From the NCBI GenBank assembly GCA_963798085.1, contig CAWCRS010000003.1, positions 416,001-480,000 of the forward strand: a stretch of 64,000 nucleotides of DNA. Direction: 5' to 3'. Position 1 is the stretch's first letter. Each line of letters opens with the position of its first letter. The DNA is from an uncultured Gemmatimonadales bacterium (lineage in GTDB: Bacteria > Gemmatimonadota > Gemmatimonadetes > Longimicrobiales > RSA9). The notes below the pieces were generated by a model. It did no database searches. It was not told where the DNA came from and worked only from the letters and a program-made list of their open reading frames with translations. The translations under genes were made by a program, and so were the position numbers. Positions 2,721 to 29,499 of this stretch are shown here, one piece after another.

Positions 2721-5684
2721 ATGAAGCGATGGAGCAGTGGATTGTCGAGGCGGCTGGCGCGCAGCAGGCCGGCGCTGGCGGCGTCCCCGGCCCGGCGGAC
2801 CAGTCTGCGTCTGGCACTGTCAGCGCTGCTGCTCGCGGCGTCCGCGGCTGCACAGCAGCCGCTCAAGACGCTGACCTTCGCGGACTACCCGCGCTGGTCA
2901 CGCATCACGGACGTGCAGCTGTCCGCGGACGGGCGCTGGATGGCGTACGCGTACGCGCCCAATGAAGGCGATGCCACGCTCTTCGTCCGCGACCTCACGG
3001 GCACGGCGATCGACACGATTCGCACGCGCCAGTGGTCCGGCGTTCTCCGAGGATTCGCGCTGGGTTGTCTACACGGTGAATCCACCCGGGCAGAGCGGCG
3101 GCCGCGGGGGTCGGGGCGGGCGAGGTGGCGGCGGTCGCGGTCAGACGCCACCGGACAACACGACGCCGCAGCGCGGTCAGGGCGGCGGCCCGCCGGCGGC
3201 GCCGCGCATGCTGCAGCTGCTGGAGCTGGCAACGGGCACGAAGACGGACATTGTGCCGGATCCCCAGTCCTCCGCTTTCTCTGCCGACTCGAAGTTCCTC
3301 GCAGTTCGCCGCAGCAAGGCGAACCGCGAGGCCACCCACGACGGCACCGACCTCGTGCTGCGCAACCTGAGCATGGGCACGACGCTGAACATCGGCAACG
3401 TGTCCGCGTTCGCGTTCAACAAGCCGGGAGCGCTGCTCGGCTAGGACGGTCGATGCGGCCGGCAAGGTCGGCAACGGCCTCTACCTGATGGACCCTTCGA
3501 GCGGCGCGGTGCGGGCGCTGGACACGGACACGCTGCGCTATGACCGGCTGACGTGGAGCCGCGACGGTTCCCGCCTGGCCGTGCTGCGCGGCGAGACGGC
3601 GAAAGGCAAGGAGCAGCGTTCCAATGCGCTGGTCGCATTCAGCGGGCTGGCCGGCGGCGCGAAGAACGCTGGACCGCAGCCGCAGGAGCGGAGGCGCGAC
3701 GGGAGCCGAAGCCGCATCGTCGCCTGTCATGATCAGCGCCGGCACTCGCCTCGACTGGGATCCCGCCGCCGATCCGGCATTCCCGAAGGACATGGTGCTG
3801 TCCGAGCTGGGCGCCATGGAGTGGAGCCGTGATGGCGCCCGCCTGTTCCTGGGTGTGAAGCCGCAGCAGGACAAGGTCGAGGAACCGCCGGCGGGCAGCG
3901 ACCCGAAGGCAAACGTCGAGATCTGGCACTGGGGCGATGACAGGCTGTTATCAGTGCAGAAGATTCAGGCCGATGCCGATCGGCGCGCGACCTGTCCGCT
4001 GCGCTCGAATCTGGCGGACCGGCACTTCGTGCAGCTGGGCGACGCCGACATGCCTCGCCTGCTGACCCACGCGCGACGGCCACTGGGCCATGGGCGAGAA
4101 CGACAAGCCCTACATCCGCGACTGGGATGAGGCGGATGGCCTGGGCGATCTCGTGCGCGTCAGCACGGCGACCGGTGAGCGCACCACGCTGGCCGACCGT
4201 GTGCGCTTCCCGCTGGGCGTGTCACCCGACGGCAGGTGGAACCTCTGGTTCAAGGAAGGCAAACTCTGGCTGCAGGACATTGCCTCCGGCGCGCGCACCG
4301 ACCTCTCGGCCGTGGCCGGCACGAGCTTTCTCAATGTCGAGTACGACACGCCCGGCGAAAAGTCGTCGTACGGCATTGCGGGCTGGTCGAGCGATGGCCG
4401 CTCCGTCCTCGTAAATGCCGAGTTACGACTCTGTGGCCGCTGCCGCTCGCGGCGGGTGGAGGGCGATCGAACCTCACGCGCGGCATTGGTGACGAAGGAC
4501 CAGGTGCGTTTCCGCGTGGAGAATCTCGCGGCCGATGACGACGAGCCCGGCATCGACACGTCGAAGCCGATCGTGCTCACGCGTACGGCGAATGGACGAA
4601 GAAGTCCGGCTACTGGACGTTGGAGCCGGGAAGAGAACCGCGGCCGTTGATCTGGGAGGATCGCTCGATCGGTCAGAGAGGAAGGCGAAGAACGCGGACC
4701 GTGTGGTCTTCACGGCCAGACCTTCGTGGATTTCCCGGACTGGTACAAGCGGCGCTGCAGCTTCGCAGCCCGGTGCGCGTCACGGACGCGAATCCGCAGC
4801 AGAAGGAGTACGCGTGGGGCCGGCGCAGTGCTCATCGACTACACGGACCAGCGGGGCCACAAGCTGCAGGCCACGCTCTCCCTGCCTGCCGGCTACGTCG
4901 AGGGAAGGAGTATCCGATGCTCGTCTACTTCTACGAGAAGCTCTCGCAGAACCACCACCAGTACTCGATGCCCACGTACGACGACCGGCCACACATGTCC
5001 ACGTACGCGAGCGACGGCTACCTCGTGCTCATGCCGGACATCGTGTACGACATGGGCAAGCCCGGCACCTCCGCCTGGATGACATCACCAGCGCCACGAA
5101 GAAGGTGATCGAGCTCGGCTACGCGGATCCCGCGCACATCGGCGCGCAGGGTCACAGCTGGGGCGGCTACGAGTCCTCGTTCCTCGTCACGCAGACAGAC
5201 ATGTTCGCCGCCGTCGTCACGGGCGCGCCGCTGACGAATCTCGAGAGCATGCACAACATCCTGTACAAGCAGTCGGGCGGCGGCAACGCGCCGTTGATCC
5301 AGTGGGGCCAGGGCCGCATGGGCACCGTGCCCTGGGAGGATCCCGAGGGGTACGCGAGCCAGTCGCCGGTCCGCTTCGTCGAGAACATCCGAACGCCGTT
5401 CATGATCATGCAGGGCACGGCCGATGGCGCGGTCGACTGGAACCAGGGTCTCGAGTTCTACGTCGCGGCCCGGCGCGCGGGCAAGAAAGTCATCTTCCTG
5501 ACGCTATCCCGACGAACCGCACCATCTCGCGAAGAAGGAGAACCAGAAGGATTTCCAGCGTCGCATGAAGGAGTTCTTCGATCACTATCTCAAGGGCGCG
5601 CCGGCGCCGAAATGGATGACGGATGGCGTGCCCTACCTGGATCGCGCGCGCGAGATCGTTGCCGCTCCCAGCGGTTCGCGCTGA
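2721..5684 (+). CDS. S9 family prolyl oligopeptidase-like secreted peptidase (heavily frameshifted)
   Basis: ATG 2721 after GGAG, signal peptide ([15 protein letters not shown]), SADGRW/SPDGRW propeller repeats, catalytic [14 protein letters not shown] and YPDEPHHL, pieced together across frames. Stop TGA 5682-5684. Confidence 0.8.
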
Positions 5685-10933: not shown

Positions 10934-13900
10934 ATGGCCAGCAGGAAGCAGACTACGAAGCGTGCTGTGAAGCGGGGTCGCAAGAGTGCAGCGAAGTCGT
11001 CGGCCGCGCGAGTGAAGGCCGCTTCGACGACGCAGCCGGATCGTTCGGCGCACGCACTGCAGGATGCTGCAGTGGAGGCGGCGCTGGCGACGGGCGAGCT
11101 GAGCGGGCCGCTCGAAGATTATTTCGGTGCGGCGAACTACGCGGAGCTGCGGCAGCTGGCGAGGGAAGCATCGACGCGCGCGGCGGTGCGGGGTGGTCCC
11201 CGCGTACTGATCCTTCCGGGCATCATGGGCTCGAAGATCGGCACGCAGGGTCCATTGATCTTCGATCATGTCTTCTGGGTCGACCCCATCAGCATTGCGG
11301 CGGGCAAGCTGGCGGACCTGGCGCTGCCGGGCAGCAGGAAATTCGAGCCGCTGGGTGTCATTCTGCTGGCCTACCTCAAGCTGAAGCTGCGACTCGTCGC
11401 TGCCGGCTATAACGCGGAGTTCTACCCGTTCGACTGGCGCCAGAGTGTGGACGATCTGGGGCGTGGCCTGAAGCAGCGCATCGAGCAGACGCCGGGGGAG
11501 TTGTCACTGGTGGCGCACAGCATGGGCGGGCTGGTGTCGCGCGCCGCCGTCGCGCAGGGCGCGAAGGTCAAGCGATTGATCATGCTGGGCACGCCCAACT
11601 TCGGCTCGTTCGCACCCGTAATGGCCATCCGCGCGACGTATGATGTGGTGCGCAAGGTGGGCTGGCTGGACACGAAGCACACGGCCGAGCAGCTGAGTCG
11701 CGATGTGTTCGGCACGTTTCCCGGGCTCGTGCAGATGCTGCCTTCGCCCGACCACTGGGACGGCCTGAACCTGTACGACCGCGCGACGTGGCCGGGTGAC
11801 CTGGCGCCGCACGCCGATATTCTGGCCGCCGCGCCCGGCGTGCAGAAGTCGCTGTCGCCGGGCCGCGACAACTTCTACCTGATCGCCGGCGTGGAGAAGT
11901 CCACGGCGGTGAGCACGCGGCTGGAGACTGACAACGGCGTCACGCAATTCGTGTACGACTACTCGCTCGAGGGTGACGGCACGGTACCCCTTGCCTTCGC
12001 GAAGCTGCCCGGCATTGCAAAGACGTACTACGTGGTCGAATCGCACGGCAGCCTGCCCAACAACGGCACGGTCGAGCAGGCCGTGCTGGACCTGCTGGAG
12101 AAGGACAGCACGAGTGTGCTGCCGGAGAGCTGGACGCCGCCGCAGCAGCGCGGCGCGGCGACGCGCCGGGAATCGGAGCTGCGCACGGAGCCGTTCGGCG
12201 GGCGGCGCGCCGGTCTGCTGAGCCAGTCGGAGGTGCGCCACCTGCTGGATGAGGTGGCCTCGCCGGACGCCGCGGAAACGGGCGAGGCGACAGGCGCGGC
12301 CACGGCCGCCGCGCCTGCGGCAGCGCCTCTAACGCCCGGTTATCAGCACGCCTTCGACCACGTGGTCGTGGGCCGGCGCACGCAGCATCGCATTGACCTG
12401 CGCTTCGCACAGGGCAGCATCACGGAGGCGAACACGCGTGCCATTCTGCTGGGCGTGTTCAGCGATGTCACGCCGTCGGGTGCGGCGAGGGCGCTGGACG
12501 AGCGCCTGGACGGCGCCATTACGGATCTGTTCCGCCGGCGCATGTTCGAGGCGAGGGTGGGTGAGGTGTTCGTGCTGCCCAAGGGCCGGCACCTGCTGGC
12601 GGCGGACTTCGTCACGTTCGTGGGACTGGGAAGTTTCGACCGCTTCGGCGACCAGTCGCTGCAGACGGCGGCCGAGAATGTGATCCGCATGCTGATCGCC
12701 GCCCGCATCGAGGAGTTCGCGACCGTGCTGTTCGGCGGCGGCTCGGGCGAGAGCCCGGCAGGCGCGCTGCAGAACCTGCTGACGGGATTCTTCCGCGGGT
12801 TGCGTGATGCGGATCACGATCAGGATTTCCGGCGCATCGTCATCTGCGAACAGGACCCGGCGCGCTACATCGCGCTCAAGTCGGAGCTGTTCCGTCTGTC
12901 CAGCACGGCGCTGTGCCAGGATGTGGAGATCACGTTCGAGGAGAAGCCACTGCCCGAGCCGCCGATCCTGACGGCGACCGAGACGCGCGGCGTCTCGCGC
13001 CTGGATCCGGTCTACCTGATCGTGCGCCAGGAGCAGAATGTGGCTGGCGACACGCACATCCGCTCCTCACTGCTGACTGCGGGCGCCAAGGCGACGATCA
13101 TCTCCGGCGTCCTCACCAATCCGGCCAGCGATCTGGAAACGCTGCGCCGCCAGATCGCCGAGGTGGATTCGACGAATTTCGAAAAAGCGGGGCCACAGCT
13201 GGCGCAGGCGGTGCTTTCCGAGCAGATCGTGCAGGTACTGCCCCGCTACCGCGACCATCACCTGGTCGTGGTGCACGACGCGGCCATGTCGCGTGTTCCG
13301 TGGGAAGTCATGGGACTGCGGTCGGGCGATGGTGACGCGGGTGGCGTGTGGTTCCCGGCTCTCGAGAAGGGCCTGACACACCGTTATGCCGCGGACAATC
13401 TCTCGGTTGCGAAGTGGCTGGAAGAGCGCGTGCAGGATGACAAGCTGAACATCCTGGTCGTGATCAATCCCACTGAGGACCCGGGCCTGGCGGCGGCCGA
13501 CATCGAAGGTGACCGCGTCGCAAAGCTGTTCGCGGGCCGTACCGACGGCGTGGTGCAGGTGTTGAAGGGCGCGGCGGCCACGCACCGCGCACTGCTGGCC
13601 GCATTCAGCTCGGGCAGGTACGATGTGATTCATTATGCGGGCCACGCCTTCTTCGACCCGCAGAATCCCGAGCGCAGCGGCATTCTCGCCCATCGCGAAG
13701 AGCCGCTGACCGGCGCGCAGCTGGCCGGGCTCAACAACCTGCCCACGCTGGTATTCTTCAATGCCTGCGAATCGGCGCGGGTGCGCGGCGTGCGCGGTGG
13801 CCCGAAGCTGAAGTTCAAGGCGCCCGCCTCGAAGCAGGAACACGCCGAGCGCGCGGTGGGCTTCGCCGAGGCGTTCATGCGCGGCGGCATTGCCAATTTC

Positions 13901-14122
13901 CTGGGCACGTACTGGCCCGTGCACGATGCGTCCGCCGGTGATTTCGCAGAGACGTTCTACGGCGAGCTGGTGCAGGGCAGCACGCTGAGCGACGCCCTGC
14001 TCGCGGGCCGCCGCCGTGTGCACGAGTTGACGGTGAACGAGGGTCAGAAGGACTGGGCCGATTACGTCTTCTATGGCAGTCCCGACTTCAGTCTGAAGCA
14101 ACCGCCGCCGGCGGGCGGCTGA
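10934..14122 (+). CDS. Fusion of alpha/beta-hydrolase (LCAT/PGAP1-like lipase), Macro/M17-N-like domain and CHAT caspase-like protease
   Basis: RBS GGAGG. Lipase motifs ILPGIMGS, FDWRQS, AHSMGG (11513-11530), GTPNFGS, GDGTVP and H. CHAT dyad HYAGH (13631-13645) and NACES (13760-13774), plus GTYWPV and WADYVFYG. Confidence 0.9.
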   Translation: MASRKQTTKRAVKRGRKSAAKSSAARVKAASTTQPDRSAHALQDAAVEAALATGELSGPLEDYFGAANYAELRQLAREASTRAAVRGGPRVLILPGIMGSKIGTQGPLIFDHVFWVDPISIAAGKLADLALPGSRKFEPLGVILLAYLKLKLRLVAAGYNAEFYPFDWRQSVDDLGRGLKQRIEQTPGELSLVAHSMGGLVSRAAVAQGAKVKRLIMLGTPNFGSFAPVMAIRATYDVVRKVGWLDTKHTAEQLSRDVFGTFPGLVQMLPSPDHWDGLNLYDRATWPGDLAPHADILAAAPGVQKSLSPGRDNFYLIAGVEKSTAVSTRLETDNGVTQFVYDYSLEGDGTVPLAFAKLPGIAKTYYVVESHGSLPNNGTVEQAVLDLLEKDSTSVLPESWTPPQQRGAATRRESELRTEPFGGRRAGLLSQSEVRHLLDEVASPDAAETGEATGAATAAAPAAAPLTPGYQHAFDHVVVGRRTQHRIDLRFAQGSITEANTRAILLGVFSDVTPSGAARALDERLDGAITDLFRRRMFEARVGEVFVLPKGRHLLAADFVTFVGLGSFDRFGDQSLQTAAENVIRMLIAARIEEFATVLFGGGSGESPAGALQNLLTGFFRGLRDADHDQDFRRIVICEQDPARYIALKSELFRLSSTALCQDVEITFEEKPLPEPPILTATETRGVSRLDPVYLIVRQEQNVAGDTHIRSSLLTAGAKATIISGVLTNPASDLETLRRQIAEVDSTNFEKAGPQLAQAVLSEQIVQVLPRYRDHHLVVVHDAAMSRVPWEVMGLRSGDGDAGGVWFPALEKGLTHRYAADNLSVAKWLEERVQDDKLNILVVINPTEDPGLAAADIEGDRVAKLFAGRTDGVVQVLKGAAATHRALLAAFSSGRYDVIHYAGHAFFDPQNPERSGILAHREEPLTGAQLAGLNNLPTLVFFNACESARVRGVRGGPKLKFKAPASKQEHAERAVGFAEAFMRGGIANFLGTYWPVHDASAGDFAETFYGELVQGSTLSDALLAGRRRVHELTVNEGQKDWADYVFYGSPDFSLKQPPPAGG

Positions 14123-14165
14123 CCGGGCTGACTCGTACTGACGCGAATCCGGATGGAGGAGAGCG

Positions 14166-15573
14166 ATGCCTGACCAGACATGTTTCGTGATTCAGGGCTT
14201 CAACAAGAAGCAGGACTATCCGACGGGCCGGACGCTGGACCTGGACGCGTCGTACGCGGTGATCAAGGAAGCCGTCGAGTCCATGGGTCTGAACTGCGTT
14301 CGTGCGGATGAGATCAAACACTCCGGCACGATCAATGAACCGATGTTCCAGCAGATCCTGGATGCCGACATCGTGATCGCGGATCTGTCGACGTACAACG
14401 TGAACGCGGCCTACGAGCTGGGCGTGCGCCACGCACTGCGCCCGTATACGACGATCATTGTGGCCGAGAATCAGATGAAATACCCGTTCGACTTCAGCCA
14501 CATCGCCATTCAGTCGTACGAGCATTCTGGGTTCGGATATCGGACGGCGCGAGGCCGCGCGCTTCCAGGACGTGCTGCGCGGCCTGATTGCCGCGCTGCT
14601 GCAGAAGAGCAACACGGACAGTCCGGTCTACACCTTCATCCCCGCACTGACGCCGCCGGCCCGTCCCGCACCACCACCACCGCCACCGCCGCCACCCGCG
14701 CCCCCGGCCGCTCCCGCGACACGCGGCGCCTCGCCGGCGCCAGCCGCTGCGCAGCCTCAGGCGGCGGGCGCAGCCGCCGGCACGGCCGCAGCCGCAGGTG
14801 AGAGCATCAAGTCGCGCACCGACCGGGCAAGAGACGCACTGCGCCGCAGCGACTTCGTGACCGCACGCGCGGAGCTGCTGTCGCTGCAGAACGATCTGAA
14901 ACAGTCAGGCACTCCGGACGCCTCGATCACACAGATGCTGGCGCTGGCTACCTACAAGGGCGGCAAGCCCACCGTGGATGCAGCACTGGGTGAAGCACGC
15001 GGTTATCTCGCGGAGCTGGATCCCGCCAATTCGCATGACACGGAGACGCTGGGACTGTGGGGCGCCATCCACAAGCGGATCTGGGACCGGAGCAGGGATC
15101 CGGCGGCTCTCAATGAGGCCATCCGCGGTTACGAGCGCGGATTCCAGCTGCGACAGGATTACTACAATGGCATTAACTACGCGTTTCTGCTCAATGTGCG
15201 CGCGCACGAGCTGACCGGGACGAAGCTGCCCGAGGCCGTGACCGACTGGGTGATCGCGGAGCGGGTGCGCCAGCAGGTGCTCGAGATCTGCGCCACGGAG
15301 CTGCAGAAGATCCCGGCTGTAGACGTCACTGCCGATGACGCGGCGTCGAAGGAGCTGATCGACCGCAAGTACTGGATCCTTGCGACACTGCAGGAAGCGG
15401 CCGCAGGTCTGGGCGACGACGCTGCCATGGACCAGTGGAAGCAGCAGGCGGCCGCGCTCAATCCTGCGGGCTGGATGCTGGAATCGACGATCAGTCAGAT
15501 CATGCGCCTGCAGCAGCTGCTGGCCGATCCGCCCACGCGCGCGCTGGGCGCCGCCGCCGGCGCCGGTACCTGA
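14166..15573 (+). CDS. Nucleoside-deoxyribosyltransferase-like (DRHyd/ASK-type) domain + Pro linker + TPR-like (DUF4071/TPR-S-like) protein; one frameshift near 14525
   Basis: RBS GGAGGAG. CFVIQGF, CVRADE, ADIVIADLSTYNVNAAYELGVRHAL and PFD motifs, then after removing one base EHLGSDIG...DSPVY, ETLGLWGAIHKR, DYYNGINYAFL and YWILATLQEA. Confidence 0.8.
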
Positions 15574-15668: not shown

Positions 15669-16286
15669 GTGAGCTACGATCTGAGTCTGACGCGCGGCAA
15701 TTACGCCTGGGAGAACGCCGGCGTCGAGATCGCGCCCTTCGAGCTGCGCGAGCTGATGGCCGGCGATCGCTCGTTGCGTGGCGAGCTGATCGATGGCGAA
15801 CTGGTCGGCTTGCGCTGGGGCGGCCATCCGGATGGCGACACGGTCGTGTTCCGCCTGGCCGACGGCAATCTCGTTGCCAGCGATCCCGACCGCCCCACGG
15901 TCAGCAAGCTGGTCGACATGGCCACGCGGCTGCGCGGGCGCGTGCTGGGCGATGACGGCGAGCGCTACGCCCGCGATGGCAGCTGGACGCACCCTGCGGC
16001 CGGCGCCGGCCGCGTCGGTGGTGCGACGCAGGACCGCCGCCAGTTCTTCCGCGGCCTGTTCGACATGGCGCGCCAATCCGTGCGCGCCACCCCAGCCCGC
16101 CCGAATGCCCCCTTCCACAAAGGCGATCGCGTTCGCGATACCGCGGGCAATGTGGCAACCGTTCTCGGCATCGAGTACGTCAACGGCGGCGGCCTCAATG
16201 TGCTGGTCACGCGCTTCCCGGATGGGAGGCTGGTGAAGAGGGCGCTGAGGACGACGCAGGACCTGGTGAGGGAGGCGCAGGCGTGA
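15669..16286 (+). CDS. Hypothetical protein (YDLSLTR...RVLGDDGERY domain plus small C-terminal beta domain)
   Basis: Clean ORF with GC-typical codon usage and a globular-looking sequence. Confidence 0.6.
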   Translation: MSYDLSLTRGNYAWENAGVEIAPFELRELMAGDRSLRGELIDGELVGLRWGGHPDGDTVVFRLADGNLVASDPDRPTVSKLVDMATRLRGRVLGDDGERYARDGSWTHPAAGAGRVGGATQDRRQFFRGLFDMARQSVRATPARPNAPFHKGDRVRDTAGNVATVLGIEYVNGGGLNVLVTRFPDGRLVKRALRTTQDLVREAQA

Positions 16287-18558: not shown

Positions 18559-18792
18559 GTTGCTGGCAGTGGTTGCTCGGGCTGGTTGCTGGGGAACAGA
18601 TCACAGCCAGGCCCGCAGCAGATCCGAGCGGTTGGCCGGCATGTGCGGGACACGCGGCCCGGGTGCTCCGCCGCGTCCGCTCACGCAGAGTGATCGATTC
18701 GTCTAACACCATCTTCACGCGCGTCCTCTCATCCCAACTGCAAGATCCGTTGTCAATTCAGTCGTTCCCCACCAACCAGCCCCAGCAACGCC
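18559..18792. repeat. Inverted-repeat element between ctaD and ctaE
   Basis: 26-bp arms at 18572-18597 and 18764-18789 with 2 mismatches (GTTCCCCAGCAACCAGCCCCAGCAAC consensus). Confidence 0.8.
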
Positions 18793-18804
18793 GTTCGCAG
18801 TCTC

Positions 18805-20620
18805 TCAGGCATGCCCACCCTCATACGCCCAGTTGACCACGCCTACGGCCGCCCAGGCTACGCCCATGAGTGGCGCCCACCAGAGGTGCGTCAGGAACAG
18901 GGCGAACGTGCCGACCACGCCCATGGCGGTGAACAGCGGCCAGTAGGAAGGTGGCGGCATGTGGAACGACTCGGGCGGGCCGAAGGCGACGGCTTCGACG
19001 CGCTCGCGCTCGAGCCACAGCGGTTCCCGGCTGTGCACCGTGGGTATGCGCTGGAAGTTGTGCTCGACGGGCGGGCTCTCGGTCGCCCACTCGAGCGTCG
19101 CTGCGCCCCACGGATTGCGGCCCGCGGGCTCGCCATGTTTGAGACTCCGGAACACGTTGATGAAGATCAGCAGCACGCCCACCGCGGTCAGGAATCCGCC
19201 GACCGTGGCGATCATGTTGAGGTTGCCGAGGCCCAGCTCGCTCGAGTACGTGAATACGCGCCGAGGCATGCCCAGCAGGCCGATCCAGTGCATGGGCAGG
19301 AACGTCGTGTGCAGGCCGACGACGTAGAACCAGAAGCTCCACCTGCCCAGCCGCTCGTTCATCAGACGGCCGGTGACCTTCGGATACCAGTAGTGGATGC
19401 CGGAGAGCACGCCCAGGATGAGGCCGCCCAGCAGCACGTAATGGAAGTGCGCGACGACGAAATACGTGTCGGTCTGCTGCAGGTCGTGCGGCGATGTCGC
19501 ATGCATCACACCGGAGACACCGCCCATGGTGAAGGTCGCGACCGCGGCCGTCGCGTACATCATCGCAGCTGGTGAAGCGGATCGAGCCGCCCCACATGGT
19601 GGCAATCCAGTTGAAGATCTTCACGCCCGTCGGGAATGGCGATGATCATCGTGCTGATGGTGAAGAACGAATCGGCAATCGGCCCCATGCCGGTGGCGAA
19701 CATGTGGTGCGCCCAGACGCCCCAGCCGATCGAGGCCGATCAGTGCGCCCGAGTACACCATCACGGCGTAACCGAAGAGCGGCTTGCGCGAGAACGTCGG
19801 AATCACTTCGGACAGGATGCCGAATGCGGGCAGGATCAGGATGTACACTTCCGGATGCCCGAACAGCCAGAACAGGTGCTGCCAGAGTATGGGATCGCCG
19901 CCGGCCGCGGTGGCGAAGAAGAGCGTGCCCCAGAAGCGGTCGAATGTGACCAGGAACAGCGCCACCGCGAACACGGGCAGTGCGGTGATGATGATGAAGC
20001 TGGTGATCAGCGCCATCCAGGTGAACAGTGGCAGGCGCATCAGTGCGCATGCCGGGCGCGCGCAGGTTTACGATCGTGGCAATGAAGTTGACGCCGCCCA
20101 TGATCGACGCGATGCCCAGCATCTGCAGGCCGAGCGCCCAGAAATCGATGTTGAGGCCGGGCGCGAACTGGCGCTCCGTGAGGTTGGCGTACCCGAACCA
20201 GCCGCCGTTGGGCGCCTGACCCACGAGGAAGCTCGAGTTCATGAACAGCGCGCCGAAGAAGAAGATCCAGAAGGAGAGCGCGTTGAGGCGAGGGAACGCC
20301 ACGTCGCGGGCGCCGATCTGGAGCGGCACGATGAAGTTGAAGAATGCTACGGCAATGGGCATCCCGACCAGGAACACCATGGTCGTGCCGTGCATGGTAA
20401 ACAGCTGGTTATACGTGTCCGCGGTAACGAAGTGGTTTTCCGGCCGGGACAGCTGTATGCGCATCAGCAGGGCTTCGATGCCACCGACCAGGAAGAAGAC
20501 CAGTGCGGTGAGGCCGTACATTACGCCGATCTTCTTGTGATCGACGGTCGTGAGCCACTCCCACACGACCGACCTGCGCTCGTGCGTAGCGACTGCCACC
20601 GGTGTTGCAGTGCTTGCCAT
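18805..20620 (-). CDS. ctaD: Cytochrome c oxidase subunit I (several frameshifts, probably artefacts)
   Basis: TVDHKKIG, FTMHGTTM, WLFGHPEVYILILP, AHHMF and FVVAHFHYV across ORFs 19646-20620, 19621-20040 and 18805-19605. Confidence 0.92.
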
Positions 20621-28057: not shown

Positions 28058-28266
28058 ACAGGCTGTTGCCCTTCTGACGGGCGGGGTCGCGGCCTGCATG
28101 CGACCTCGCCCGTTTGCTTTCCAAACCCGCTGTCAGGCCCCGCGTGTCCGCTTTCCGCATCGCTTTGCGCGTCACTGGACAGTCCGGTAAGAGGCTGGCC
28201 TGCCGTTCCCCGCTGCGCCGCCCGACAGCTCCGGACCGTTCCAGCCAAGCCAATGGAGCCAGACCC

Positions 28267-29499
28267 ATGTCCAGCGTTCTGCAGAGCGTTCTGACCCGCA
28301 TGCTCGCATTCGCCGCCCGCGACCGGCAGCGCATCTTCATCAGCTACCGCCGCCGCGGTGAGGGCGCGGGGTACGCCGGCCGCCTGGCGGACCGGCTGAT
28401 CCACGAATTCGGGTCGGACCAGTGCTTTCGGGATATCGACGACATCGAATCAGGCACCGACTTCGTGGAAGCCATTTCCCACGCCGTGGGTTCATGCGAC
28501 GTGCTGATTGCCGTGATCGGCCCCGACTGGCTGAGCGCCACCGACGCGCACGGCCAGCGGCGGCTCGAGAATGAGCGCGATTTCGTGCGTCTGGAGATCA
28601 CGGCCGCCCTGGCAAGGGACATACGGGTGGTGCCCGTGCTGGTCGGTGCCGCGCTCATGCCCACGCCCGAACAGCTGCCGGACGCCATGGCCGCGCTGTC
28701 CCGCAGGCAGGCACACGAGCTGAGCGACACCCGCTGGGACTACGACGTCAGCCAGCTCATCACGTCCATCGAGCGGCTCGGTATCCGCCGCGCGCGCGAC
28801 GCCAGTCGCCAGCCCGTGCGCCGCCGCTGGAAGCTCGCGGGCGCGCTCGTGGCCGGCTTCACCGCGATCAGCCTCGGCATCGCGGCGCTCAGCTCTGCCA
28901 TCGACCGCATGAACACGGCTTCGCTGGATACTCTCCCCGCGTTCACTCCCGCCGCCGGCGGGAGTGCGGTCGATGGCATCCGTACTGCGTCCGAATCCGT
29001 TCCGCTGCGTACCCCGCACACCGAGTTGGTGAAGAGCGGCGCAGACCGCCGGGACGTGTCGTATCAGCCACCCGACCCGACACTCGGACAGGGACCCGCC
29101 ATTCTCGCCGCCATGCGCCGCGCGAATCAAGCGGAGACGGAGGCGTTCCGTGCGCTCGATGAGGACGTGCTCAATGGCCCGTTCACAGGCGAGGCCCTGG
29201 CCATGGAGCAGCTGGCGCTGCGGGGTCTGGCTGCCGCCGGCCAGTTCACGGTCAACACGCTGCACGACCAGCGCATCCTCTCGCTGAACGTGAGCCCGGA
29301 CGGCAGCAGCGCCACGGTTCGGGCGGTGGAGACCTGGAGCGACGTCCACTATAACGCGCTGTTGCGCCAGTGCATGTTCCGCGTGCCGCCGCACGAAGTG
29401 CCGCAGACCGTGCGCCTGCTGCGGGTGGCGGGATTGTGGCGGGTGACGGCAATTGAAGGCGACGCCGCCGAATCACCGGATCCGACGCCCTGCGTGTGA
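28267..29499 (+). CDS. TIR domain (TIR_2) protein with TM helix and C-terminal extracytoplasmic domain
   Basis: IFISYRR, FRDIDDIESGTDF, AVIGPDW, DFVRLEI and VVPVLV motifs; hydrophobic segment LAGALVAGFTAISLGIAAL. Confidence 0.88.
   Translation: MSSVLQSVLTRMLAFAARDRQRIFISYRRRGEGAGYAGRLADRLIHEFGSDQCFRDIDDIESGTDFVEAISHAVGSCDVLIAVIGPDWLSATDAHGQRRLENERDFVRLEITAALARDIRVVPVLVGAALMPTPEQLPDAMAALSRRQAHELSDTRWDYDVSQLITSIERLGIRRARDASRQPVRRRWKLAGALVAGFTAISLGIAALSSAIDRMNTASLDTLPAFTPAAGGSAVDGIRTASESVPLRTPHTELVKSGADRRDVSYQPPDPTLGQGPAILAAMRRANQAETEAFRALDEDVLNGPFTGEALAMEQLALRGLAAAGQFTVNTLHDQRILSLNVSPDGSSATVRAVETWSDVHYNALLRQCMFRVPPHEVPQTVRLLRVAGLWRVTAIEGDAAESPDPTPCV

Follow-up and report, generated by a model that had tools for sequence, protein, structure and literature searches.

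A lipase-Macro-CHAT fusion protein and its probably ThsI-like neighbour in an uncultured Gemmatimonadales bacterium

Gene A (P0001; 10934..14122, plus strand), a single open frame of 1062 aa in the 64,000-nucleotide stretch analysed here (the window), joins an LPLA2-like lipase, a Macro-fold domain and a separase-like CHAT protease in one chain; the protein is widespread, and its carrier here is a soil bacterium. Judged from its sequence, the protein is most likely a ligand-gated, self-cleaving latent lipase, and the new part of its architecture is the Macro-CHAT module together with a conserved Arg-Gly site that precedes the lipase. Gene B, which follows on the same strand, is likely to be ThsI-like, on architecture rather than on sequence comparison with a tested ThsI. 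A and B are very probably not an obligate pair, and because they rarely occur together, it is fusion protein A rather than the pair that is worth testing.

Domain architecture of gene A

Pfam places LCAT at residues 150-380 of A, Peptidase_M17_N (PF02789, E 2.8e-11) at 506-619 and CHAT (E 3e-37) at 752-1049; NCBIfam profiles gave no match above cut-off. In the structure model (mean pLDDT 87.6), helices at 44-53, 57-64 and 66-82, together with conserved columns, delineate an N-terminal lipase cap at approximately residues 40-86 (11051..11191, plus strand). The alpha/beta hydrolase that follows (11192..12106, plus strand) matches lysosomal phospholipase A2 (VIA Z 27.2, rmsd 3.0, 291 aligned) and carries a Ser-Asp-His triad, S196-D348-H371, both features of an LPLA2/LCAT-like lipase. 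The C-terminal CHAT domain (13001..14107, plus strand) matches separase (VIA Z 21.9) and Csx29 (Z 21.2), and its caspase-like fold and His-Cys dyad (H904-C945, with a conserved R-x-R loop after it) are those of a CHAT/separase-like, clan CD protease. A profile search of solved structures returned a slight match to CHAT protein 8tl0.

Among 8000 candidates scored, 1173 are homologues of A, the best 120 at 48-66% identity. The initial annotation had described intact lipase (AHSMGG, D, H) and CHAT (HYAGH, NACES) catalytic residues, and conservation bears this out: across 97 aligned homologues S196 is kept in 96, and D348, H371, H904 and C945 are each kept in all 97. The lipase triad is intact in 91, and the CHAT dyad in 94, of 96 full-length diverse representatives. 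Cultured Corallococcus strains carry copies at 52-53% identity, so native tests are possible. An assignment of A as Borvo BovA was rejected, the PADLOC match spanning only 100 of 711 profile positions, inside CHAT, with no BovB among the four proteins scanned. Literature searches found no paper combining CHAT, Macro, lipase and bacteria, or CHAT, caspase-like, hydrolase, Macro and anti-phage, nor, among the papers listed, the names 'Macro-CHAT' and 'DUF7379'; an earlier description may exist in Burroughs and Aravind 2020 (PMC7685563) or Burroughs et al. 2015 (PMC4678834).

The Macro-fold domain and the R86-G87 site

The central domain of A (12392..12928, plus strand) resembles the leucyl-aminopeptidase N-terminal domain (VIA Z 18.3, rmsd 2.4, 179 aligned) and superposes on TTHA0132 with a TM of 0.80; both of these have the Macro fold. 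ADP-ribose-binding Macro domains carry a GD(I/V)T motif with an adenine-binding Asp, plus Gly-rich phosphate loops. The two Gly-rich loops are kept in A, and the motif reads G-S-I-T, with Ser replacing the usual Asp, a change shared by 92 of 97 close homologues; Asp occupies the position in 36 of 96 diverse full-length representatives. The aminopeptidase N-terminal domain, the closest to that of A, is not known to bind ADP-ribose. The earlier 'Macro' label thus holds for the fold, but the domain is of leucyl-aminopeptidase N-terminal type and has Ser for the usual Asp. That it reads an ADP-ribose-type ligand is a tentative proposal, its chances somewhat short of even.

A candidate cleavage site, R86-G87 (11189..11194, plus strand), lies in the loop that joins the cap to the lipase. 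RG occurs there in 93 of 97 close homologues and in 45 of 79 scorable diverse full-length representatives, compared with 1-10% per 8-mer for three further linkers; it is missing from the remaining 34 of the 79. Of the full-length relatives 25 of 30 keep it, and of the hydrolase-only relatives 8 of 45, counts that leave out 11 ORFs that are open, short or without the anchor motif. Co-evolution of RG with CHAT, which these counts seemed to favour strongly, finds no support in four independent tree pairs, which give 1.4 for and 1.0 against (p ~1). Cutting of a hydrolase zymogen at R-G by a caspase-like protease has precedent (Evans et al., bioRxiv 10.1101/2025.11.14.688446), and activation of A by its own protease may be put at roughly even chances.

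Gene B and its likeness to ThsI

Gene B (14166..15573, plus strand; 468 aa when read through a frameshift) combines an N-terminal MilB/NDT/TIR-like nucleotide hydrolase domain (14166..14645, plus strand) with a TPR-S, or ASK1-like TPR, domain (14800..15540, plus strand; PF20308 at E 4e-22, PF13281 at E 2e-10). Homologues number 3963 among 8000 scored. The YELGVRHA motif of the NDT-like domain lies at 14412-14435, as had been claimed, and its E84 (14415-14417) is invariant in 70 of 70 aligned rows, as are RAD and N80. For a stand-in 63% identical to B, TIR-STING, MilB and NDT tie as fold matches of the N-domain (Z 11.7-12.0), and the best match is the ASK1 regulatory region 5ulm (Z 16.6, rmsd 3.5, 214 aligned), in agreement with the resemblance first noted for the TPR-like region. 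A sequence search of solved structures gave nothing useful for B. The poly-Pro linker described initially is present in this gene but is no family trait, since at least five prolines occur in 2 of 70 rows, this B among them.

One extra base at 14525/14526 (14525..14526, plus strand) disrupts the frame of B, and placing an X at this point gives the 468-aa reading. This +1 frameshift is probably an assembly error: the alignment crosses the break without a gap in 70 of 70 homologue rows, and genes near B are broken in like manner. None of the contig pieces listed spans the frameshift; among the sequencing runs listed, one contains a 0.15 share of the locus words and none is an RNA run.

ThsI, the effector that cADPR activates in type VIII Thoeris, has a CMP-hydrolase-like domain together with the TPR domain that Aravind and colleagues had predicted; cADPR toxicity is shown for it and its target is not (Yirmiya et al., bioRxiv 10.64898/2025.12.03.692087). 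B has this same CMP-hydrolase-like plus TPR-S architecture, and its homologues adjoin separate TIR genes (ThsB_TIR at locus L207, and on plasmids) as well as SLATT genes. Together these features suggest that B is a signal receiver and not a phage sensor or signal maker, and the architecture makes an effector without its TIR partner more likely than a sensor. The initial proposal that B senses infection and makes a nucleotide signal is accordingly unlikely, this architecture having already been described as that of a cADPR-responsive effector. No ThsB TIR gene lies in the B operon, the nearest TIR_2 being 12.5 kb away. The genome holds 17 TIR_2 matches; seven TIRs from B-homologue loci have no match in it, and no small ThsB-type TIR was found in this 90% complete genome.

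Genomic setting and co-occurrence of A and B

B starts 43 bp past A on the same strand, and GGAGG precedes both starts, so the original description of two co-oriented genes, each with a strong ribosome-binding site, is correct. B is near A in none of 47 other close A loci. In 50 A-family genomes no B orthologue was found (the best match had E 2e-25, against 1e-71 to 1e-108 for orthologues), nor, among 73 family genomes searched, in any of the six others with a close A, which is present in seven of the 73. One class sample of 301 genomes contains A in three and B in four, with no overlap. A stands beside the cox operon without B (G001 and L090), a site that it occupies, again with no B, in a genome of the same genus. 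B-like genes do lie within 5 kb of five distant A relatives, and the top-scoring relative of A and the second-ranked relative of B come from contigs of equal length, so that the pair probably recurs once. Rare co-occurrence had been named beforehand as grounds for refutation, and by that measure a dedicated system does not hold. A functional tie between A and B at this one locus may nonetheless exist.

A defence-island setting was rejected: around A and B the window holds the cox operon and genes for an S9 peptidase, ABC ATPase, LysE, glycosyltransferase and VKOR, and GC is flat. Neither promoter nor terminator scans rose above chance. In A's own clade, flanking genes are housekeeping, and none of 47 full-length or 58 hydrolase-only loci has a caspase, TIR, SLOG, patatin, TPR-S or DRHyd neighbour. 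Such a neighbour is present at 18 of 43 distant A loci. TPR-S is fused, after CHAT, in eight distant relatives, this genome's paralogue included, and Macro-CHAT is a mobile unit, found by itself and also in fusions with TIR, caspase or M64 peptidase. The TPR-S fusions and the caspase, TIR and SLOG neighbours of distant relatives suggest that A and B belong to an NAD-signal immune network, and the general setting of NAD-derived signalling, caspase-like protease and lipase is to this extent upheld. Many Gammaproteobacterial copies of A adjoin LysR genes (assigned by Pfam, the LysR cluster being shared by 57 loci) and peroxiredoxin genes (ahpC/ahpD, recognised by eye). These copies have lost Macro-CHAT approximately 4-5 times while keeping the lipase, and no Macro-CHAT orthologue is present elsewhere in five of five such genomes tested.

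Proposed activation and rival explanations

The best explanation, held with slightly better than even confidence, is that A and B are separately inherited neighbours, A being the older resident of the site and a self-contained latent effector and B an accessory effector of ThsI-like kind that lacks a local TIR. Upon infection or stress, a TIR protein elsewhere in the genome would make an ADP-ribose derivative; by analogy with ThsI, the TPR-S domain of B would bind cADPR and its hydrolase domain would attack nucleotides. An ADP-ribose-type ligand may bind the Macro domain of A and switch on the CHAT protease, which would cut after Arg at R86-G87 and possibly also within its R951 loop, so releasing the lipase to act on membrane lipids. 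Macro-CHAT as an undescribed ADP-ribose-gated protease module is possible, at somewhat less than even chances. If the scheme is true, A unites a sensor, a protease and a latent lipase in a single chain and constitutes a new reader for TIR-made signals. The scheme also bears on how effectors without an adjacent TIR might be triggered in TIR-rich soil bacteria, as with A in all of the 47 other close loci and B in several soil genomes. A full relay, in which B would hydrolyse TIR-made cADPR, as Raw does, to give linear ADP-ribose, the Macro domain of A would read it, and A would cut itself at R86 to release a membrane lipase, with Macro-CHAT as an ADP-ribose-gated NAD-signal counterpart of SAVED-CHAT, is improbable.

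The absence of defence neighbours in 105 close A loci, the retention of A at one site in related genomes and the loss of Macro-CHAT beside LysR/peroxiredoxin genes would also fit an A domesticated into a non-immune job, such as membrane lipid remodelling or stress response, with B an unrelated mobile defence gene behind it; an immune-type protease module would then have been put to ordinary use. This account is rather unlikely given the patchy presence of A in the family, the strong constraint on its protease dyad, its relatives fused to TPR-S, TIR and caspase, and a co-oriented B so close behind it. In Csx29 and separase, the fold matches of A CHAT, the CHAT domain is under the control of TPR regions; this and the eight relatives with TPR-S after CHAT would likewise accord with A and B as a split form of giant lipase-CHAT-TPR-S proteins, the TPR-S of B binding and regulating CHAT directly. 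However, the TPR-S of B does not match that of the paralogue at E 1e-3, close A orthologues manage without TPR-S, and none of 15 longer B homologues carries CHAT or lipase (weak evidence as to fusion), and a split form is accordingly very improbable.

The initial model, a dedicated system in which B senses infection and makes or releases a nucleotide signal that activates A, draws on the tight spacing, the invariant hydrolase Glu and TIR fold ties of B, the prediction that DRHyd domains make signals (PMC7159879), the one probable second co-occurrence and the B-like genes near five distant A relatives. Co-occurrence nevertheless fails in every survey, and the same architecture lies downstream of TIR in type VIII Thoeris, leaving this model with little probability.

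Comparison with known systems

Like ThsI (bioRxiv 10.64898/2025.12.03.692087), B has CMP-hydrolase-like and TPR domains and homologues beside TIR and SLATT; it differs in having no adjacent TIR, in being frameshifted in this assembly and in having A as its neighbour. Its fold also resembles residues 95-531 of the ASK1 N-terminal region, although B has no kinase and ASK1 is eukaryotic. Drosophila Raw, a cADPR hydrolase that has a TIR fold and catalytic glutamates (PMC13455253), is likewise eukaryotic.

The precedent for the proposed cleavage of A is LcCaspase/LcHydrolase (Evans et al., bioRxiv 10.1101/2025.11.14.688446; pairing predicted in PMC7159879), in which a caspase-like protease cuts an alpha/beta hydrolase at conserved Arg-Gly sites to yield a toxic enzyme. 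LcHydrolase stands as a protein of its own, of 296 aa, and both of its sites fall within the fold (compared by eye), whereas A is one chain with CHAT instead of C14, an LPLA2-type lipase, a Macro domain and one conserved RG before the first strand. A does not show the LcHydrolase layout of a ~300-aa hydrolase beside a C14 caspase, and none of 47 close loci has a caspase neighbour. SAVED-CHAT of type III-B CRISPR (bioRxiv 10.1101/2023.06.23.546230) and the caspase of type IV Thoeris, which cuts after Arg (bioRxiv 10.1101/2024.10.24.620036), are nucleotide-signal-gated caspase-like proteases and in this respect resemble A as proposed here, but the putative sensor of A is Macro-fold rather than SAVED, its substrate is apparently fused, and no CRISPR or TIR lies beside it. 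The Macro domain of the type II Thoeris effector (TM-Macro) receives an ADPR-derived signal; that of A is of aminopeptidase N-terminal type and is joined to enzymes, without membrane helices. The giant DUF7379-LCAT-(Macro)-CHAT-TPR-S proteins, at 1600-2000 aa and often downstream of a C14 caspase, have an extra hydrolase domain and a fused TPR-S, neither of which A possesses, yet they share its lipase-Macro-CHAT core at ~30% identity and include a paralogue in this same genome.

Gene layout and assembly quality

Gene A occupies a single open frame encoding 1062 residues (10934-14122, +) and is followed after 43 bp by gene B (14166-15573, +), with GGAGG ahead of both start codons. Pfam places LCAT, Peptidase_M17_N, and CHAT domains in A, so the lipase, Macro-type, and CHAT parts described in the initial annotation are real, as are the spacing and the ribosome-binding motifs. 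B carries a single surplus base at 14525/14526 and, with an X placed there, reads as 468 residues; the alignment shows no gap at the break in any of its 70 rows. This frameshift is likely an assembly error, because neighboring genes show similar breaks in an error-prone assembly. Compared with their orthologues in G001, a genome of the same genus, the S9 peptidase (2883-5654) aligns as 8 fragments in three frames, with cox1 (18787-20620) split over two, pointing to indel errors near A and B. None of the contig pieces listed spans 14525/14526.

Directly 3' of B lies a 205-residue ORF (15669-16286, +) with no Pfam, PADLOC, or NCBIfam match, which is not found between A and cox in G001. A gene 12.5 kb from B (28114-29499, +) encodes a TIR_2 protein that is extended at the C terminus and predicted to contain a membrane segment. 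Elsewhere in the genome, 22 tRNA genes lie on one strand within 3.7 kb (G000:C5:189593-193300).

Architecture and conservation of A

In a structure model of A (mean pLDDT 87.6), residues 87-391 resemble lysosomal phospholipase A2 (Z 27.2), residues 478-665 the leucyl-aminopeptidase N-domain (Z 18.3), and the C-terminal part separase (Z 21.9) and Csx29 (Z 21.2). The family comprises 1173 matches among 8000 candidates scored and, with partial matches counted, 918 clusters at E < 1e-30 among 1.84 billion representatives. Judging by the nearest relatives of A that carry a name, the host probably belongs to Gemmatimonadota. The full-length architecture is present in 96 of the best 150 representatives, with the lipase triad (S196-D348-H371) intact in 91 and the protease dyad (H904-C945) in 94. 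The Macro-fold domain retains two Gly-rich loops. In canonical Macro domains the Asp of a GD motif binds adenine; the motif in A is GSIT, as in 92/97 close homologues, and GD occurs in 36/96 diverse ones. In A, Ser stands in place of that Asp, so any ligand binding by this domain is putative. A may contain a new ADP-ribose-gated protease module.

Three Arg-Gly pairs are conserved in more than 90 of 97 A homologues. Two sit at helix ends within domains; the third, R86-G87, lies in the loop separating the helical cap from the lipase and is a candidate cleavage site. R949 and R951 are retained in the loop following C945. Evans et al. demonstrated cleavage of another hydrolase at two R-G sites by a caspase-like protease, with the resulting fragments killing cells (bioRxiv 10.1101/2025.11.14.688446). 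Two observations count against cleavage of A: among the diverse proteins that could be scored, RG occupies the candidate site in just 45 of 79, and on independent tree pairs loss of RG does not follow loss of CHAT.

A is, as its relatives' sequences indicate, a modular protein. Macro-CHAT without lipase accounts for 32 of the best 150 representatives (fragments partly included), about ten of which, at 580-670 residues, open with Met followed by a short leader. Other fusion partners of Macro-CHAT are a C14 caspase (P0393), a TIR domain (P0417, with Val aligned at the catalytic Cys), and an M64 peptidase (P0287, L096). Conversely, the lipase occurs without Macro-CHAT in many Gammaproteobacteria, and a quick family tree requires 5 architecture changes, 4 of them forced by well-supported branches. 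Distant relatives of 1600-2000 residues end in TPR-S in 7 of 31 proteins scanned and in a source-genome paralogue. The latter (G000:C5:708242-713023, -; L167:8243-13024) has 1593 residues and combines a DUF7379/LCAT hydrolase with CHAT and a C-terminal TPR-S domain; 2.4 kb further downstream, a TIR-WD40 gene is encoded in the same orientation. At L074:8001-11696, an A-type hydrolase carries, in place of Macro-CHAT, a fused trypsin-like protease together with a non-specific endonuclease. In many Gammaproteobacterial loci (L033, L043, L048, L064, and others), A or its hydrolase-only form lies directly behind a LysR regulator and adjoins peroxiredoxin-type genes recognized by eye as ahpC/ahpD, suggesting an oxidative-stress link; Macro-CHAT has been lost several times among these loci.

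Genomic association of A and B

The initial annotation proposed A and B as a candidate immunity/cell-death module, but for the most part the two genes are distributed separately. Close A relatives occur in 7 of 73 family genomes (in one, A is truncated at the end of a contig), and among those seven a B orthologue occurs only in the source genome; these tallies include the unpublished G016, G038, and G462, and no claim is based solely on those three. In G001, A is flanked by the S9 peptidase on one side and, with no intervening gene, by the cox operon on the other, and at a further locus, L090, A is again beside cox and B absent. A is therefore the resident of this site, and B was gained here or lost there. 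A B orthologue is found in 0 of the 50 A-family genomes searched (50 of 68, comprising 31 with close full-length, 10 with distant, and 9 with other loci), 7 of which have weak B-family matches. A sample of 301 genomes from one class has A in 3 and B in 4 with no overlap, which shows only that the link is non-obligate, because chance overlap is near zero anyway. Favoring a tie, the A homologue P0004 (66% identity) and the B homologue P0126 (60% identity) each derive from a single 13,033 bp JGI contig and are probably on the same one, adjacent or not. The pair is an occasional association rather than a conserved system.

A defense neighborhood was likewise not borne out for close A. Within 5 kb flanks searched for TPR-S, DRHyd, TIR, caspase, SLOG, and patatin, immune-type neighbors are absent from all 47 close full-length loci (of which 39 have 4 kb or more of flanking sequence) and all 58 hydrolase-only loci, but present at 18 of 43 distant loci, a tally biased toward the distant group since that group supplied the seeds for caspase, TIR, SLOG, and patatin and part of those for TPR-S. 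Two duplicates were removed, L159 was reassigned by hand to the distant group, and the loci are not independent. By Pfam scan, the immediate neighbors of close A loci are housekeeping genes only. Lacking any defense context, A may have a housekeeping role. At L201 (G513:C182), genes for TIR-NUDIX, DRHyd-Macro, DRHyd-TPR-S, and TPR-S-patatin proteins are clustered; a distant A of that genome, G513, is on another contig.

Comparison with known systems

Pfam finds TPR-S and MAP3K_TRAF_bd in B. Its fold was read from a model of an intact homologue, 63% identical, whose best match is the ASK1 regulatory region (Z 16.6), upholding the ASK1 likeness first noted for the TPR region; over full length against the ASK1 N-terminal region, Z is 14.9 with rmsd 15. 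For the proposed NDT-like domain, the N-domain of that model ties in fold among TIR-STING, MilB (a CMP hydrolase), and NDT, and the Pfam NDT match of B is weak. In P0262-P0264, a B-type module is fused behind an nSTAND1 NTPase.

ThsI, the effector of type VIII Thoeris, combines a CMP-hydrolase domain with a TPR domain that Aravind and colleagues had predicted and is toxic once cADPR is supplied (Yirmiya et al., bioRxiv 10.64898/2025.12.03.692087). B homologues on a viral contig and on plasmids resemble this system in adjoining TIR genes: a ThsB_TIR gene directly follows the viral homologue (36% identical), and annotated TIR genes lie within about 2 kb in 4 of 5 plasmid loci opened, three of those four also bearing SLATT. 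B in soil Acidobacteria and in G167 is without such a TIR neighbor. The source genome (90% complete) contains 17 TIR_2 matches and 8 CHAT genes, and a small ThsB-type TIR was not found in it. By its architecture, B is best classified as an orphan, ThsI-like effector.

Literature searches found no description of a lipase-Macro-CHAT protein; the 2020 paper of Burroughs and Aravind, reportedly the source of TPR-S, may already include lipase-CHAT-TPR-S architectures. A represents a variant, as yet unstudied, of the theme of protease-gated hydrolases, here in a single chain. Related literature comprises work on type IV Thoeris (Rousset et al.), the papers of Kaur et al. 2020 and 2021, and those on the Raw cADPR hydrolase and SAVED-CHAT.
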